A DNA stretch of 15,894 nucleotides from Candidatus Latescibacterota bacterium (GTDB lineage: Bacteria; Latescibacterota; UBA2968): the NCBI GenBank assembly GCA_038279365.1, contig JAYODI010000046.1, positions 28,361-44,254 on the forward strand, in the 5' to 3' direction. Under the pieces are notes generated by a model, which was not told the origin of the DNA, ran no database searches, and saw only the letters and a list, made by a program, of their open reading frames with translations. The position numbers and the translations under genes are program-made. Shown here in pieces: positions 5,002 through 15,824 of this stretch. Numbering within the stretch: position 1 is the stretch's first letter; every line of letters begins with the position of its first letter.

Positions 5002-5994
5002 TTATTTGATCTTCATGTCTTGAACGGCTTGCACAACATCTTTTACAGTGGGTATGGTTGCATCTTCAAGGGGTTTGCTAAATGGAATGGGCACATCCAT
5101 TGCGCCTAAGCGCACAATGGGCGCGTCGATATAATCAAAAGCACCTTGATAGACGACCGATGCCAATTCGCCTGTGATGCCATAACCGCGATGGCCTTCG
5201 TCGATGATGACAGCGCGGGTGGTTTTGATGACCGATTGAATGAGGGTTTCTGTGTCAAGTGGGACTAAGGTGCGCGGGTCTACAACTTCGGCATGGATGC
5301 CTTGTTCGGCCAAGTGGTCGGCGGCTTGAAGGGCAACGTGTACCATGCTGGATGTGGCAATGAGGGTAACATCATCCCCTTCGCGTTTGATGTCGGCTTG
5401 GCCAAGTGGAATGGTAAAGTCTTCATCTGTGGGCACCATGCCTTTGAGGGTGTACATCATTTTGTCTTCGTAGATCACCACGGGGTTGTTGTCGCGCACG
5501 GCGCTTTTGAAGAGGCCTTTGGCATCGGCGGGTGTGGAGGGTATAACCACTTTGAGACCTGGGATATGTGCCAACCAGGCATGTAAGCTTTGTGAGTGCT
5601 GGGCGGCAGAAGATCGCCCTGCACCGAGGGTGGTACGAATGGTCAATGGCACGCTGGCCTGACCGCCCGACATGTAACAGAGCTTGGCGGCTTGGTTAAC
5701 AATTTGGTCCATGGCGAGGGTGATAAAGTCGCCAAACATCACATCCACAATGGGTCGCATGCCCGTGAGGGCCGCACCGACACCAAGCCCCACCAAACCG
5801 GCTTCGGCAATGGGGGTATCGATGATGCGGTCGGGGCCAAATTCGTCGTAGAGACCGGTGAGCACTTTGAAGACGGTGCCTGCTGGGCCCACGTCTTCGC
5901 CCATGAGAAACACATTGGGGTCACGGCGTAATTCTTCGGCGATGGCTTCTTTAACGGCTTCGCCAAAGGTCATTTCTTTTTCAGACGTAGACAT
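5002..5994 (-). CDS. acoB: TPP-dependent acetoin/pyruvate dehydrogenase E1 beta subunit
   Basis: MGEDV, DTPIAE, DQIVNQAAK, AAQHSQ and EVVDPRTLVPLD are typical E1 beta motifs. Overlaps E1 alpha by 14 nt. Substrate is not certain. Confidence 0.93.
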   Translation of the reverse strand: MSTSEKEMTFGEAVKEAIAEELRRDPNVFLMGEDVGPAGTVFKVLTGLYDEFGPDRIIDTPIAEAGLVGLGVGAALTGMRPIVDVMFGDFITLAMDQIVNQAAKLCYMSGGQASVPLTIRTTLGAGRSSAAQHSQSLHAWLAHIPGLKVVIPSTPADAKGLFKSAVRDNNPVVIYEDKMMYTLKGMVPTDEDFTIPLGQADIKREGDDVTLIATSSMVHVALQAADHLAEQGIHAEVVDPRTLVPLDTETLIQSVIKTTRAVIIDEGHRGYGITGELASVVYQGAFDYIDAPIVRLGAMDVPIPFSKPLEDATIPTVKDVVQAVQDMKIK

Positions 5995-6943
5995 GCTGGT
6001 TCACCTCCGAAACGTCGGGATAGTCGGCTTTTTTGGCGGCTTCAACGGCATTGGCAACTTCGCTTTCCACTTCGCGCACTTCGGCGTCGAGCTCGGCTTC
6101 GGAGGCCAGTTTTTCGGTTTTCATTTTTTCACGTAGGCGATTAATGGGGTCTTTGGCGAGCCACTCATCGCGTTCTTCTTGTGGGCGATACGATTCACCT
6201 GGGTCGCCTACGTGGTGACCTCGATAGCGATAGGTGTCGCATTCGATGAGGGTGGGGCCACCGCCTGATCGGGCACGTTCAACGGCTTGGGCGGTGGCTT
6301 CATAAACGGCAATGGCGTCACTGCCATCGACTTGGGCCGATGGAATGCCAAAGGGTGTGGCACGGTCGGCAATGCATTTGCCTGCGGTGACACTTTGGGT
6401 GGCGGTGAATTCGCCATAGTGATTGTTTTCGCACAGATAAATGATGGGCAATTGCCAGATGGCAGCAAAGTTCATGGTTTCGAAGAAGATGCCTTGGTTG
6501 GAAGCGCCATCGCCGAAGAAACAAACAGCGACTTGGTCGGTGCCTCGTTTTTTGGCGGAGAGGGCAGCACCCGTGGCGATGCCAAAACCACCGCCGACAA
6601 TGCCGTTTGCACCGAGGATGCCCACGGACATGTCGGCAATGTGCATGGAGCCGCCTTTGCCACGGCAATGGCCCGTGACACGACCCATCACTTCGGCCAT
6701 CATGTATTCGAGGTTGCCGCCTTTGGCAACGCAGTGGCCGTGGCCTCGGTGGGTGCTGGTGATGTAGTCGTCGTCGCGCAGGGCGGTGCAGGCACCAACG
6801 GCAACGGCTTCTTCGCCGATGTAGAGGTGGGCGAGGCCGTGCATGAGACCGCCGGTATAGACTTCGTAGATTTGTTCTTCGAAGCGGCGGATGCGGAGCA
6901 TGTTGCGGTACATTTTTAGAAGGATTTCTGGGGGTAGGGGCAT
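5981..6943 (-). CDS. acoA: TPP-dependent acetoin/pyruvate dehydrogenase E1 alpha subunit
   Basis: HLYIGEEA, STHRGHGH, GKGGSMH, TPP motif GDGA...ENN, YRYRGHH. AAGGA RBS. Confidence 0.93.
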   Translation of the reverse strand: MPLPPEILLKMYRNMLRIRRFEEQIYEVYTGGLMHGLAHLYIGEEAVAVGACTALRDDDYITSTHRGHGHCVAKGGNLEYMMAEVMGRVTGHCRGKGGSMHIADMSVGILGANGIVGGGFGIATGAALSAKKRGTDQVAVCFFGDGASNQGIFFETMNFAAIWQLPIIYLCENNHYGEFTATQSVTAGKCIADRATPFGIPSAQVDGSDAIAVYEATAQAVERARSGGGPTLIECDTYRYRGHHVGDPGESYRPQEERDEWLAKDPINRLREKMKTEKLASEAELDAEVREVESEVANAVEAAKKADYPDVSEVNQHVYV

Positions 6944-7012
6944 GGATTGGGTTCCTTTGTTTGGTGCGGGTTATGCGGTTTGATGGTCATCTTTATTGTT
7001 TTGGTTTTGTTC

Positions 7013-7494
7013 TGCCTACGGCGTCATACTTTTCTTGAACACCCAAGAAAAGTATGCAAAAGAAGGGTGCCACTGCGTGGGGCTTAAATTTTGTTTCGTT
7101 GTATTTACGAGCGTCAACCACCCTCACCAGCCCGTGTGGTTCCCGCCCATCCACGTGTTCCACACGCCCCTTCCCCTCCCACCCATCACCGCCCATCCAA
7201 CCACACAACGGCCCACCCCACCCGCGGGCGAAGTTGAAGTTTTGGTGTATTGATTTTACACCCCACCAAAAACACCACAAAAATCACAACCCCGATCACG
7301 TAAAGCGATCGTGATTTTCCGCGTGATCCCGTTCAGCTATTTGCTTTGTAAAAGCGATGAACGGTTTAGGCTATATTATATTGGTGTACCCACTGTGGGT
7401 ATTTGCGGAAAATCAGCCTTCCCGGCACCTGAGGGACGGCTTTTTTTGCTTACTTTTTTTAGCTGTTGAAAAAAAGTAAGTCGTGCCGAAGGCA
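7013..7494. mobile_element. Non-coding ~480 bp structured element with ~55 bp imperfect terminal inverted repeats (MITE-like or structured ncRNA; family not identified)
   Basis: Left end TGCCTACGGC-GTCATACTTTTCTTGAACACCCAAGAAAAGTATGCAAAAGAAG aligns with the reverse complement of the right end TGCCTTCGGC-AC-GACTTACTTTTTTTCAACAGCTAAAAAAAGTAAGCAAAAAAAG (34/43 in the core, with compensatory changes). No credible ORF inside. Splits the E2 and E1 alpha genes. Mobility is inferred. Confidence 0.6.
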
Positions 7495-7557
7495 AACCAA
7501 GATAAAATCTAAAATAAAACCTGCTTTCATGCAGTGTCTATCAAATAAAAGCTCCTC

Positions 7558-8745
7558 CTACAACCACTTCTCCAAATTCCCCACATCCTCCAAACTCTGC
7601 TTAAGCGTCTGTAAAAATTGCGCCGCAACAACCCCATCCACCAGCCGATGATCTGCCGAAAGCGTAATGTCTGCAATCTGACGCACTGCAATGGTGAGTG
7701 GATCTCCAATAGGAACCACACGAGGAATCGCCGCACCAATGGCAAGAATCGCCGCTTCGGGCGGGTTGACAATGGCGGTGAAGGTGGTGACACCATACAT
7801 GCCCAAGTTTGAAATGGTAAACGTGGCTGAAGCATCACCGTGGAGTTTACCTGCACGGGCGTCATTGACCCGTTGGCTTCGAATGTCGGCCAAATCGGCG
7901 AGGAATATTTTTTGTGCGTTGGGAATAACGGGTACAACGAGACCATCATCGGTGCCAACAGCAAGACCAATGTTGACGGTATCGTGAATGACCATCGCCT
8001 GAGTGCCGTTGAGACTGCTGTTGAGTTTGGGATGTTGTGTGAGGGCCTCGGCTGTGGCTTTGATGAAGAGGTCGGTGACCGAGAGTTTGATGTTGTCGGT
8101 TTGGGCAAGATTTTTGCGCCACGTTTCGGCATCGGTCATGTCAATTTCAATGCCCACATAAAAGTGGGGAATGGTGCTTTTGCTATAGGCCATCGTTTTA
8201 CCAATGGCTTGTCGCATTTTTGAAAGAGGACTGCTGCCTGCCTGGACAACGGGTGGCGATGCGGCTGTGCGTTCAACATCGGCTTTGACAATGCGCCCAC
8301 CTGGGCCTGTGCCGATAACGGTGGCGAGGTCGATGTCCAATTCACGTGCACGGTGACGCGCGGCAGGTGAGCGTTTGATGCGCGTTGATGGTGTGTTTGG
8401 GGGAAGTGATTGCGCAGGTTCTGAAACAGATGCTTCAACTTGTGCTTCGGTTGATGGTGTTGACGCGGATGTTTTAGAGAAGGCATCTTTGTCAAATGGT
8501 TCGTCTAATTCATCGGTGAGAATGGCAATGGGCGAAAGCACAGGAACCACGTCACCGTTTTGGGCCAAGATGTGACGCAAATAACCTTTTTCGGGTGCTT
8601 CGTATTCAAAGACGGCTTTATCGGTTTCCAGTTCGAGCAGAATGTCACCTTTTTCGACGCGGTCGCCTACTTTTTTGCGCCATTCGATAATGGTGCCTTC
8701 GTCTTGTTGGAGACCGTATTTGGGCATGTTGATGGGTTTGGTCAT
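7558..8745 (-). CDS. acoC: Dihydrolipoamide acyltransferase (E2) of a 2-oxoacid/acetoin dehydrogenase complex
   Basis: Start reassigned to MTKPINMPKYG (ATG at 8745) because the upstream extension is translated tandem repeat. One lipoyl domain (ETDKA), peripheral-subunit-binding domain (SPAARHRA...GTGPGGRI), catalytic DHRLVDG. Confidence 0.92.
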   Translation of the reverse strand: MTKPINMPKYGLQQDEGTIIEWRKKVGDRVEKGDILLELETDKAVFEYEAPEKGYLRHILAQNGDVVPVLSPIAILTDELDEPFDKDAFSKTSASTPSTEAQVEASVSEPAQSLPPNTPSTRIKRSPAARHRARELDIDLATVIGTGPGGRIVKADVERTAASPPVVQAGSSPLSKMRQAIGKTMAYSKSTIPHFYVGIEIDMTDAETWRKNLAQTDNIKLSVTDLFIKATAEALTQHPKLNSSLNGTQAMVIHDTVNIGLAVGTDDGLVVPVIPNAQKIFLADLADIRSQRVNDARAGKLHGDASATFTISNLGMYGVTTFTAIVNPPEAAILAIGAAIPRVVPIGDPLTIAVRQIADITLSADHRLVDGVVAAQFLQTLKQSLEDVGNLEKWL

Positions 8746-8772
8746 AGGGAACTCGTTAAAGAGGTAAGGGTG

Positions 8773-8868
8773 AAATGGCAAACGGCAAACGGCAAACGGC
8801 AAATGGCAAATGGCAAATGGCAAACCTGGAGGTGTCAAAGATGGATGATGTTATTTTTGCCGTTTGCC
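8773..8868. repeat. Heptamer tandem array (AAAYGGC)x7 with a facing inverted partial array
   Basis: Seven units at 8773-8821, ~30 bp spacer, then TTTTGCC GTTTGCC at 8855-8868. Confidence 0.92.
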
Positions 8869-8876
8869 TGTCTTTT

Positions 8877-11224: not shown

Positions 11225-11280
11225 GGGAATGGCAAATTGGCGAATCTGCGAATTTGCGAATCAACGAATCTGTGAATCAA
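11225..11280. repeat. Degenerate octamer tandem array (CGAATCTG-like) x7
   Basis: GGGAATGG CAAATTGG CGAATCTG CGAATTTG CGAATCAA CGAATCTG TGAATCAA, followed by a short inverted remnant CCCATTCG at 11283-11290. Confidence 0.85.
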
Positions 11281-12185: not shown

Positions 12186-12279
12186 GGCAAATGGCAAACG
12201 GCAAATGGCAAACGTGGTGATTCGCATCATATGGGGTGGTTGGGTTGGGTCTTTTGCCATTTTACTTTTGCCGTTTCAC
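12186..12279. repeat. Heptamer tandem array (GGCAAAY)x4 with a facing degenerate inverted array
   Basis: Four units at 12186-12213. TTTTGCC ATTTTAC TTTTGCC GTTTCAC at 12252-12279. Same unit as 8773-8868. Confidence 0.88.
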
Positions 12280-12284
12280 TGCTT

Positions 12285-13031
12285 TTATGCGACGTCTTTT
12301 AAACCATCCCATTGATCCCACATGTTATGTGGTAGATCGAACATGATGTCGTTGAGGTTGTGAAATGAGAACCGACTGACCAAGGCCATACGAATGGTGT
12401 CTTGGCAATTCATGCTGGCGGTGTGGAGCATGTAGTGATGCCAAAAGACGATGGAGCCCGCAGGGGCGGCGTGTTCGTAGCGGTTGGGTAAATTGGTGAG
12501 TTCGGGCACTTCGCCTTTGTTGATTTTCCACCCGTGGGTAATGGGATGCTGTCTAAAGTATTCGGCCACTTTCAGGTGTGATCCGCCCCAGGTGGTAAAT
12601 CCACCGCCTTGGAGGATGATGTCGCTGACATTGAGGGTCACGGCAATGGTGAATGTGCCGGCCACACCATCGGTAAGATAACCGTCGAGGTGCCCACGTG
12701 GGGGTGTCCAATTTTTGTGGCCTGTGGGAAAATTCATTTTACATAAGGGTTTTCCGGGGGGACGCATACGTCCTTTGCCGACGAGTTCTTCGGCCATGTC
12801 GTAGGTTGGGTTGTCGTGCAAGGTGGATATGATGGCGGGTTCATCGCTACAGGGTAGGTTGCCTTTTGGTCCGGCGTCGATCCACGATTTGGGATCATTT
12901 CTATCGGCCTCAATATGGTCCCAAAGCACATCTTTGGCATTTTCGATTTGGTCTTTGGGCACGACGTTGTGTTTGACAACATATCCGTTTTGCTTAAAGA
13001 AGGATTTTTCTTCGTTGGTGAAGTAAGACAT
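12285..13031 (-). CDS. Phytanoyl-CoA dioxygenase (PhyH) family Fe(II)/2-oxoglutarate dioxygenase
   Basis: Start MSYFTNEEKSFFKQNGYVV (ATG at 13031, AAGGAG RBS). HLD and distal H (MLHTAS), GGSH, and 2OG-binding R (IRMAL). Confidence 0.88.
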   Translation of the reverse strand: MSYFTNEEKSFFKQNGYVVKHNVVPKDQIENAKDVLWDHIEADRNDPKSWIDAGPKGNLPCSDEPAIISTLHDNPTYDMAEELVGKGRMRPPGKPLCKMNFPTGHKNWTPPRGHLDGYLTDGVAGTFTIAVTLNVSDIILQGGGFTTWGGSHLKVAEYFRQHPITHGWKINKGEVPELTNLPNRYEHAAPAGSIVFWHHYMLHTASMNCQDTIRMALVSRFSFHNLNDIMFDLPHNMWDQWDGLKDVA

Positions 13032-15703: not shown

Positions 15704-15824
15704 AGAATGGGCGAATGGACGAATCGGCGAATAGACGAATAGACGAAAAGGCGAGAATCTTGCAATATACTTTGGGAGGGGAGGATTCGCTGATTCGCAG
15801 TTTCGCTGATTCGTTTATTCGCTT
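15704..15824. repeat. Octamer tandem array (CGAATnnn) facing an inverted octamer array (ATTCGCTG-like)
   Basis: AGAATGGG CGAATGGA CGAATCGG CGAATAGA CGAATAGA CGAAAAGG (15704-15751), ~30 bp spacer, then ATTCGCTG ATTCGCAG TTTCGCTG ATTCGTTT ATTCGCTT (15785-15824). Confidence 0.9.

Follow-up and report, generated by a model that had tools for sequence, protein, structure and literature searches.

What fills the 610-nt spacer that separates the 2-oxoacid dehydrogenase E2 and E1-alpha genes on contig JAYODI010000046.1 of a Candidatus Latescibacterota bacterium (assembly GCA_038279365.1)? The DNA analysed here (15,894 nt, positions 28,361 to 44,254 of the contig on the forward strand; hereafter the window) carries two knot-like sequences within that spacer, one on each strand, which an earlier reading of the letters (hereafter the original prediction) had drawn as triple-helix pseudoknots at the left and right ends of one element. 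The plus-strand sequence is the 3' end-module of a repeat unit of type B, and its partner is the 3' module of a type A unit on the minus strand. Our preferred reading, to which we assign a probability of roughly 0.55, is that the module closes a multi-copy structured non-coding element and forms, at the RNA level, a triplex or knot that caps and marks the end of the unit.

As drawn on the plus strand, the module consists of a short strand (S1a, GACGGC), a T7 run (the U-run of the RNA), a linker G and a hairpin (stem 2) whose loop can pair with S1a (stem 1), followed by a tail that folds into a mini-hairpin with a GNA triloop. This layout was present in the sequence, with the motif ending at 7480 and not at 7481, as were the 12-bp stem 2 and the match between the U7 third strand and A7. 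All 12 pairs of stem 2 are Watson-Crick; stem 1 joins 7435-7440 with 7462-7467 (GACGGC/GCTGTT, including two G.T pairs), and seven pairs are possible if T7441-A7461 is added. The combination of T7, 4-14 nt of any sequence and A7 occurred once in the window, against 0.01 expected, and one occurrence was reached in 2 of 200 shuffles. The left and right copies differ, as had been pointed out, in the third strand, in both strands of stem 2 and in stem 1.

Copies and distribution of the module

Copies were sought in the own genome of the window (G000; 6.03 Mb, 199 contigs). The spacer between 6990 and 7520 matched at least 40 further places, with its left half (~7005-7245), its right half (~7295-7500) and its last ~110 nt each recurring separately, and an iterated nhmmer profile of the ~90-nt end-module recovered 76 module copies. 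A pattern written for the whole module had 21 matches in the genome, against 0 for the reversed-pattern control. All three features of the fold were complete in 43 of the 76 hits. The combination of a type A and a type B unit (A+B doublet) was found at 3 loci (the window, C49 and C113), with 322-338 nt between the modules and a divergent arrangement in 3/3, and near-full-length matches to the doublet were present in the related genomes G001 and G002. On contigs with several copies all modules other than those of A+B doublets were solo, and a single orientation was kept on 12 of the 15 contigs with at least two copies. The two window sequences thus appear not to be the termini of a single element, as had been proposed, but the 3' modules of two unit types that mostly occur alone.

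Among 31 related genomes, the module was present in 13, belonging to genera g1, g4 and g5 of one family (0/12 in the sister family), with first-look candidate counts ranging from ~10 to ~215 among relatives. An exact-pattern scan using one genome per species yielded at least 126 loci from at least five phyla, carried by Latescibacterota metagenome-assembled genomes (MAGs), a Bacteroidetes MAG, Saprospiraceae/Lewinella, Cytophagales, Oscillospiraceae (several copies per contig), Fibrobacter, Chitinispirillaceae and a Vibrio MAG. In the relative G005 the orthologous E2/E1-alpha spacer measures ~100-150 nt and wholly lacks the ~500-bp doublet, so that ~500 bp have been gained or lost; this empty site has diverged beyond the reading of a target-site duplication. 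No transposase was found between paired copies at other loci, where the bracketed genes were enolase-family, sulfatase, malate dehydrogenase/Ham1, BamB-like and SHMT genes. Viral contigs gave 0 exact tail-pattern matches, and a blastn search of plasmids with 7385-7500 gave no match. A link with RAYT/IS200 transposases (Y1, PF01797) was rejected: three genomes carry the element with 0 Y1 hits (G014, G002 and G018), one carries 75 Y1 hits and 0 elements (G003), and none of the 8 Y1 loci examined had an adjoining module.

Covariation of stems 1 and 2

For covariation analysis, 216 module instances were collected (76 from the own genome, the rest from other loci), of which 179 were parsed into 120 distinct forms, or 104 by a stricter parse. 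The best run of pairs between the stem-2 loop and the sequence upstream of the U-run had a mean length of 5.32 pairs, compared with 4.46 +/- 0.08 in 500 loop permutations (maximum 4.70), and at least five stem-1 pairs were found in 68% of forms versus 43% under permutation. At least nine different stem-1 helices were seen, for example GGCGAC/GTCGTT, GACGGCN/N'GCTGTT, GGCACC/GGTGTT and AGAGAC/GTCTCT, as well as GCTGA/TCAGC, GCGGA/TCCGC, GTCAA/TTGAC and GTTTG/CAAAC. Wobble pairs in stem 1 are of the G.T kind in 164 cases and of the A.C kind in 20, and stem-1 pairing is therefore valid on the structure strand only, as had been claimed from the G-U pairs of the plus-strand copy.

Formal covariation counts were made in two gap-free alignments (A1, n = 16; A2, n = 30), each with 500 shuffles. 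Paired cells made up 95.0% of A1 (83.6% in shuffles) and 95.5% of A2 (87.6% in shuffles), and the covariation score was 0.321 versus 0.111 in A1 and 0.209 versus 0.063 in A2; the observed values were reached by 0/500 shuffles in either alignment. When the pairing was slid along the sequence as a control, 37-60% of cells were paired, as opposed to 95% for the structure. Stem 2 was paired in 100% of cells in both alignments, with 3 and 5 doubly changed pairs in A1 and A2, respectively, and in stem 1 all 5 of 5 pairs were doubly changed in A1; the unpaired stem-1 cells trace to copies with a different upstream module, no stem-1 strand and no U-run. Both stems of the interleaved order 1a, 2a, 1b, 2b are thus backed by covariation.

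Covariation of the third strand

Positions of the U-run were numbered t1, t2 and so on from the linker G, and positions of the stem-2 3' arm b1, b2 and so on from its base. With j = i + 5, a G at b(j) was matched by a C at t(i) for 22 of the 29 G's at b8-b12, where ~6 would be expected from column margins; at other registers the C/G match fell to 3 (offset -4) or 0 (offset -6). The 31 informative forms cover at least five positions and come from several lineages and phyla. Among the 82 forms with a U-run, a G just above the A-run goes with a third-strand C in 20 cases and a T in 2, whereas a C in that place (an inverted pair) goes with T in 20, C in 2 and G in 5. Only under Hoogsteen pairing should the third-strand base depend on the base above the A-run, so that this contrast alone separates Hoogsteen from shifted Watson-Crick pairing, and the third-strand covariation appears to fit the former and not an alternative Watson-Crick hairpin.

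The third strand was also followed through individual contrasts. Lineage C132 differs from five near-identical forms at exactly t6, a11 and b11. In upper stem 2, every one of the 12 two-position changes turns U-A into an inverted G-C pair and leaves the third strand as it was; lower stem 2 shows 16 two-position changes, again with an unchanged third strand, and the remaining 9 three-position contrasts lie at upstream sites that are not part of the third strand. The third strand falls one nucleotide short of upper stem 2 in 54 of 65 forms and matches its length in 6 (Spearman 0.81). We read as real an apparent selection for a parallel third strand that omits the loop-closing pair. Where stem 2 is intact, 33 of 52 copies in the own genome and 66 of 117 from other loci keep a perfect register. 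Loss of third-strand complementarity in other copies had been named as the finding that would overturn the original prediction; in many copies the complementarity is kept and covaries. Both window copies show 6-7 matched triplets, at or above a threshold of six, in the class IV order of intrastrand triplexes (5' Hoogsteen strand, pyrimidine strand, purine strand 3').

Comparison with known RNA families and repeats

An Rfam scan of the window at gathering thresholds gave 0 hits, and a scan of 6940-7560 at E <= 10 gave just snR13 and mir-3910 at chance level (E ~7). The TwoAYGGAY model (RF01731) had 0 hits in the own genome at E <= 1, and 14 control genomes were likewise without a hit. In the Vibrio MAG (G031, which holds the module loci L041 and L090), the same model gave 14 hits, of which 10 (9 full-length and 1 partial) exceeded the gathering score, and all 9 full-length hits were directly followed by S1a, the U-run and the start of stem 2. 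Five of the modules behind them are complete to the TCGCCGAAGGC tail, one (L183) meets a contig end, and three (L179, L180 and L182) are interrupted in the stem-2 5' arm. Taken together with units of types A, B and a third type, C, the occurrence of the module behind RF01731 makes it a shared 3' domain of several families, in which A and B are new bodies.

The three interruptions were observed to be due to one sequence that breaks the stem-2 5' arm at an identical spot, with right junctions in L041, L090 and L184 of the same MAG. The one insert scanned (L182) encodes an IS110-family transposase (PF01548 and PF02371), and the common insert suggests that the module is the insertion target of this element.

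According to the available part of a recent preprint, extended TwoAYGGAY RNAs of Pseudomonadota are multi-copy, have a long basal stem, a 3' pseudoknot and short 5-6-nt 5' repeats, and occur mostly as divergent doublets a few hundred bp apart, with a mobile-element-like expansion that is uneven among relatives (bioRxiv 10.64898/2026.09.22.753630). So far as that text goes, the element of the own genome resembles this form in its 76 copies, its long-range helix (H1), its 3' knot and its 3/3 divergent doublets. It differs in that neither the type A nor the type B body matches the model or has paired AYGGAY loops, and in that the extended form has been described in Pseudomonadota, a phylum other than that of the window's host. 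In the portion at hand the preprint (bioRxiv 10.64898/2026.09.22.753630) calls the TwoAYGGAY 3' end a pseudoknot, not a triple helix, and our literature searches found no published triple-helix reading of the module among the papers listed.

Abundant intrastrand triplex repeats (PIT/BoxC/TMECO) have been documented in bacteria and arranged in a scheme of classes I-IV (Holder et al. 2015, PMC4666352; excerpts). Within this scheme, as given in those excerpts, the module order corresponds to class IV, and the complementary strand has the potential for a purine-motif class II triplex (PMC4666352). Like these repeats, the module is a repeated bacterial intergenic element in which a single strand would fold into a hairpin plus a third strand; unlike them, on the same partial text, it adds a loop pseudoknot, a GNA tail and position-by-position covariation. 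The excerpts describe TMECO as a G/C-rich purine-motif triplex of Proteobacteria (PMC4666352), whereas the module is A/T-rich and of the pyrimidine motif.

The module can also be set beside established RNA folds and repeat families. Telomerase RNA core, SAM-II and preQ1-II are H-type triple-helix pseudoknots with the order stem 1a, U-rich loop 1, 2a, 1b, 2b, in which an A.U-rich stem 2 has loop 1 lying parallel to its purine strand, loop 3 is long and A-rich, and no nucleotide links 2a and 1b. The module shares with them this order, the parallel loop-1 pyrimidines (at the level of covariation) and the zero 2a-1b linker, but its loop 3 has 0-2 nt, its stem 2 extends 5 bp below the triplex, and it is a dispersed repeat and not a single-copy RNA. 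In ENE/MALAT1, U.A-U triples broken by C+.G-C lie near the 3' end of a non-coding RNA, where an A-rich 3' tail is clamped by a U-rich internal loop. By analogy, the module would have the same U.A-U and C+.G-C triples and might likewise block 3' decay, with the differences that its A-tract belongs to a hairpin, as the 3' arm, and has further structure behind it. REP/BIME-REPIN, ERIC, Correia, BOX and RUP elements are small, non-coding, modular, multi-copy and intergenic, are often arranged in inverted pairs and vary in presence among relatives. The module-bearing element is likewise small, non-coding, modular, multi-copy, intergenic, variably present and, in its doublets, set in inverted pairs, but has no RAYT association, much longer units, several covarying helices and a tertiary motif found across phyla.

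Anatomy of the repeat units

Units A and B of the window form a divergent doublet with their 5' ends facing and their 3' modules pointing outward; the coordinates of their parts are collected in Table 1. Thirty type B copies can be aligned across ~215 nt. In unit B, the long-range helix H1 encloses a variable domain and a small hairpin (7387-7401); the arms of H1 are swapped for GCACAGCGC/GCGCTGTGC in some copies and relatives, and the small hairpin covaries (ACCC/GGGT with CTCT/AGAG). The GC-rich hairpin P0, which shares its 3' arm with S1a, covaries between T-A and C-G at position 5 among copies. Type C has a different P0 again, and P0 of types A and C has a mere 4-5 bp. Fold z-scores were -3.9 for the plus strand of unit B, -4.3 for its complement and -1.4 for unit A; the comparable folding of the unit B complement is to be expected of helices that are mostly Watson-Crick. 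Pairing of the tail with the P0 5' arm, seen in a single-sequence fold, was dropped, as no covariation was found in other copies.

Table 1. Features of the two units, their end-modules and the adjoining genes (window coordinates; minus-strand features are read from the higher to the lower position, genes are given from the lower)
Feature	Position	Strand	Basis or remark
Type B repeat unit, ~205 nt	7295-7500	+	BLAST coverage by genomic copies rises at ~7290-7300 and falls after ~7500; 30 full-length copies aligned
Long-range helix H1 of unit B	7313-7322 (GATTTTCCGC) with 7405-7414 (GCGGAAAATC)	+	alifold on 30 copies and single-sequence fold
P0 hairpin GCCTTCCC-loop-GGGACGGC, GC-rich, 8-bp stem	7416-7440	+	sequence; 3' arm shared with S1a
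GACGGC (stem 1 5' side)	7435-7440	+	sequence
Stem 1 strand a (S1a)	7435-7441	+	partner 7461-7467; covarying
T7 run	7441-7447	+	sequence
Candidate third strand (T3), U-rich	7441-7447	+	register, length and C/G covariation with purine strand; 7441 alternatively closes stem 1
G linker	7448	+	G in 101/104 distinct copies; opposite T or C of tail position 1 in 87/104
Stem 2 hairpin, 12 bp and 8-nt loop	7449-7480	+	7449-7460 with 7469-7480; stem-1 strand b (7461-7467) inside loop
CTTACTTTTTTT (stem 2 5' arm)	7449-7460	+	sequence
AGCTGTTG (loop, 8 nt)	7461-7468	+	sequence
AAAAAAAGTAAG (stem 2 3' arm)	7469-7480	+	sequence
Tail TCGTGCCGAAGGCA	7481-7494	+	GCC-GAA-GGC mini-hairpin, GNA triloop; 2-nt TG insert in this copy
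Type A repeat unit, ~235 nt, G-rich body	7243-7010	-	BLAST coverage; 27 BLAST matches
Type A long-range helix	7206-7199 with 7141-7134	-	covaries: TGTGGTT/AACCACA with TGCCGTT/AACGGCA in other copies
Type A GGA-loop hairpin	7166-7154	-	covarying among copies
Left knot (3' module of unit A)	7070-7013	-	sequence
Left knot GCACCC (S1a)	7070-7065	-	sequence
Left knot TTCTTTT (third strand)	7064-7058	-	sequence
Left knot G	7057	-	sequence
Left knot CATACTTTTCTT (stem 2 5' arm)	7056-7045	-	sequence
Left knot GGGTGTTC (loop)	7044-7037	-	sequence
Left knot AAGAAAAGTATG (stem 2 3' arm)	7036-7025	-	sequence
Left knot tail	7024-7013	-	sequence
2-oxoacid dehydrogenase E2 gene	7558-8838	-	Pfam 2-oxoacid_dh, Biotin_lipoyl, E3_binding; convergent, stop codon 63 nt past unit B tail
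E1 alpha gene	5981-6943	-	Pfam E1_dh; same direction as unit A, start ~70 nt past unit A tail

Triloops of the tail are GAA in 65, GGA in 24, GCA in 8 and GTA in 7 of the 104 distinct copies. The first tail position is complementary to the middle base of the triloop in 103 of them (T-A 65, C-G 24, G-C 8, A-T 6), which produces a 7-nt palindrome, XCGCCGX', that could provide an additional tertiary pair or act as a site for dimerisation or for a protein.

Three further features of the units were noted. Boxes of the ATCA(C/T) and CCATC type, spaced ~10-12 nt apart, were seen by eye before the H1 5' arm of type B units (window 7265-7312; L025, L027, L029 and L030) and recall the short 5' repeats reported for TwoAYGGAY in the accessible preprint text. 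One type B copy (L185, own-genome contig C19, 290-400) keeps P0, the U-run and the tail and has an unrelated ~78-nt insert with its own hairpins in place of stem 2, which is a case of module swapping. Some modules carry an inserted mini-hairpin of ~28 nt, with GCTCAAATTAC as its core and ATGC/GCAT or ACGC/GCGT as its stem, which occurs in either orientation and stands before stem 2, within the stem-2 loop or after stem 2. Its carriers in the own genome are on C26, C34, C45, C103, C111, C113, C136, C159, C175 and C191; a pattern search gave 12 matches versus 0 for the control, of which the 11 exact ones all lie in module copies and one with a single mismatch (C177) lies outside the module hits.

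Gene context and expression

Orientation relative to neighbouring genes was taken from crude open reading frame (ORF) calls. Twelve of the 14 type A copies with both neighbours called lie in sense between co-directional genes, 6/6 type C copies lie in sense, and the tails of both types stand 5-70 nt ahead of the next ORF. Type B copies (n = 45) are opposite to both neighbours in 19 cases, between convergent genes in 7, in sense in 8 and between divergent genes in 5, with the tail usually ~20-70 nt from the stop codon of the convergent gene. The window obeys the same layout at both of its modules (Table 1).

A sigma-70-like pair (TTGACG-18 nt-CAAAAT, 7117-7088, minus strand) lies within unit A and is directed at the module and E1-alpha, so that the type A module may belong to the 5' leader of E1-alpha. 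A 24-codon ORF (6990-6918, minus strand) begins 23 nt past the unit A tail and overlaps the E1-alpha start in another frame. The two ORFs within the element (6993-7280, minus strand, and 7054-7314, plus strand) had no match in a Pfam scan.

Six RNA runs contained 6-10% of sampled words, and pieces of the contigs of four of them matched coding parts of E1-alpha and E2. Two ~20-nt pieces of one RNA contig derive from another copy of the element.

Geometry of the fold, proposed mechanism and alternative explanations

In the proposed mechanism, an element that comes and goes between related genomes would be closed by one and the same module in otherwise unrelated units (A, B and C, other bodies in Oscillospiraceae and Bacteroidota, and TwoAYGGAY in the Vibrio MAG). 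On one strand only, the A.U-rich hairpin of stem 2 is predicted to form, the upstream U-run to occupy the major groove of this hairpin alongside the purine strand and in parallel orientation, with U.A-U and C+.G-C triples up to but omitting the loop-closing pair, and the strand just 5' of the U-run to pair with the hairpin loop as stem 1, with the GNA-triloop mini-hairpin following. The RNA module would then be a compact, unwinding-resistant 3' domain recognised by machinery that copies or binds the units, and its knot may be incomplete or may alternate between states. We infer an RNA molecule, the formation of all three parts in vivo and a role as cap or handle.

Several observations weigh against this reading. 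One is geometric: no nucleotide separates stem 2 from strand b (L2 = 0), and the remaining linker (L3) has 0-2 nt in nearly all copies with a stem 1 of at least 5 bp, which falls short of the ~22-30 Å needed to cross a 5-7-bp stem 1 on its minor-groove side (A-form parameters). Loop 3 is thus too short to span stem 1 in the manner of an H-type pseudoknot; a kissing-loop geometry would allow stem 1 together with stem 2 but would put the U-run at the wrong end. With so short a linker, a complete stem 1 and the triples nearest the loop are probably mutually exclusive within one monomer; in this model, either stem 1 would be open in part while the triplex stands, or the module would switch between two states. 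Of the triple-helix pseudoknot originally drawn, the three-part architecture has stood, recurring and covarying among copies, and the simultaneous formation of the complete pseudoknot and triplex has become sterically doubtful. Intact stem 2 and tail are absent in 24 of the 76 own-genome hits. The matching C is missing for 7 of the 29 informative G's (3 in copies without a third strand, others including C76, L142 and C128_60229, the last of which would match at offset 4). In two copies, a G at b6 has G in place of C at t1. Most informative copies have a G at either end of the A-run, and the position of the C is then predicted by a shifted antiparallel pairing of U-run and A-run as well. Copies are related by descent and their counts are not independent, clearly separate three-way changes amounting to ~6-8 lineages. 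For type B, P0 and the A-rich and U-rich runs on either side of it resemble an intrinsic terminator that could act in both directions, and if it were efficient the plus-strand RNA would end before stem 2. No transcript over the element at this locus, such as the RNA antisense to the operon of the original prediction, was seen among the contigs of the four RNA runs, which says nothing either way.

The same fold might act as single-stranded or supercoiled DNA, as a class IV intrastrand triplex or an H-DNA mirror repeat with hairpins, and serve copying, insertion or replication stalling as PIT/BoxC/TMECO or REP-type hairpins may do. We consider this unlikely. A GNA triloop with a closing C-G pair is a classic stable mini-hairpin of DNA. 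A DNA fold would suit a multi-copy, patchy and insertion-polymorphic family, the pyrimidine mirror repeat made by the third strand and the stem-2 5' arm (an H-DNA signature), the tail palindrome and the one orientation kept on most multi-copy contigs, besides having documented precedents in bacteria (PMC4666352, excerpts). It is opposed by the lack of any tracking between Y1 genes and the element, by the absence of transposases between paired copies, by the place of the module at the 3' end of TwoAYGGAY units, which the preprint treats as RNAs in the text available, and by an orientation that follows neighbouring genes according to unit type, which fits transcription-related constraints. Alternatively, one RNA may have two conformers, one with stem 1 and the other with the triplex and the top of stem 2, and so act as a two-state switch. 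All three elements covary, yet simple A-form geometry with these linkers forbids a full stem 1 beside a full stem 2 in the topology on which the triplex depends, and S1a of type B also lies within P0, which adds a third competing pairing; however, the geometric argument is rough, no ligand, conserved unpaired pocket or consistent downstream expression platform was seen, and modules of types A and C stand shortly ahead of start codons where those of type B mostly do not. We think a switch quite improbable.

Two further explanations were weighed with these. That the module is an ordinary hairpin beside an intrinsic terminator, with the U-run as terminator tail and the third-strand match as co-inherited low-complexity T and A runs, is suggested by type B, where the 8-bp GC-rich P0 is followed by T7, preceded by an A-rich run and placed mostly just past the stop codon of the convergent gene; matches between a T-run and an A-run are, moreover, trivial. 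Types A and C, however, keep the U-run with a P0 of 4-5 bp and place C opposite G, the contingency of G versus C (20/2 versus 2/20/5) and the tracking of length are unexpected of a terminator tail, the loop-to-upstream complementarity covaries, and a terminator scan of 6800-7800 (loop limit 8 nt) called 0 sites, which makes this account very unlikely. The other, in our judgement highly improbable, is a single ~490-bp miniature inverted-repeat transposable element (MITE), with the left and right modules as its terminal inverted repeats, which would be mobilised as a DNA duplex by a transposase whose gene lies elsewhere. Its inverted, tail-outward modules, its TG...CA ends, the recurrence of the A+B doublet (3 own-genome loci; near-full-length in G001 and G002) and the empty orthologous site in G005 are what such an element would leave; most copies, however, are solo A or solo B with a single module, no target-site duplication can be defined at the diverged G005 site, no partner transposase was found between paired copies or in the Y1 survey, and the compensatory, G.T-biased changes point to a single-stranded fold and not to a protein-binding duplex.

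Returning to the RNA-level end-module, a far-reaching version is conceivable that we regard as doubtful: a genuine RNA triple-helix pseudoknot might be the universal 3' handle of a self-spreading superfamily of structured RNAs (TwoAYGGAY and at least four other body types, in at least five phyla), corresponding in bacteria to the triple-helix stability elements of eukaryotes and viruses; it would shield the 3' end against exonucleases, be read by copying machinery and possibly pass through an RNA intermediate. If the fold is real, the module would be a widespread natural triple helix of bacteria with clean Hoogsteen covariation (C+.G-C versus U.A-U, with U kept opposite C-G inversions), of a kind seldom met apart from telomerase and a handful of riboswitches. 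It would join orphan repeat families and the long-unexplained TwoAYGGAY RNAs by a common 3' domain and would provide, in an RNA of ~80 nt, a concrete handle on the spread of the element and its effect on neighbouring genes. At the locus itself, the doublet splits a 2-oxoacid dehydrogenase gene cluster and accounts for the seemingly empty 610-bp spacer and for dozens like it.

Other observations in the window

Arrays of a TTTGCCR heptanucleotide (read on the minus strand) were observed at 8770-8829 and 12186-12217, at or just upstream of the annotated starts of the E2 gene and of a xylose-isomerase-like gene. The own genome holds 65 such arrays of 3-20 units each, none adjoining a module, and a role as 5' partners of the units was rejected, the arrays being kilobases distant. 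Beside both arrays of the window, upstream of the two genes, lies a 28-nt direct repeat (8848-8875 and 12259-12286, 79% identical), which may be a shared leader or promoter piece. Two 39-nt stretches of GCGAAT-like tandem units (11232-11270 and 15784-15822) are 79% mutually complementary, and both are close to annotated starts of minus-strand genes.

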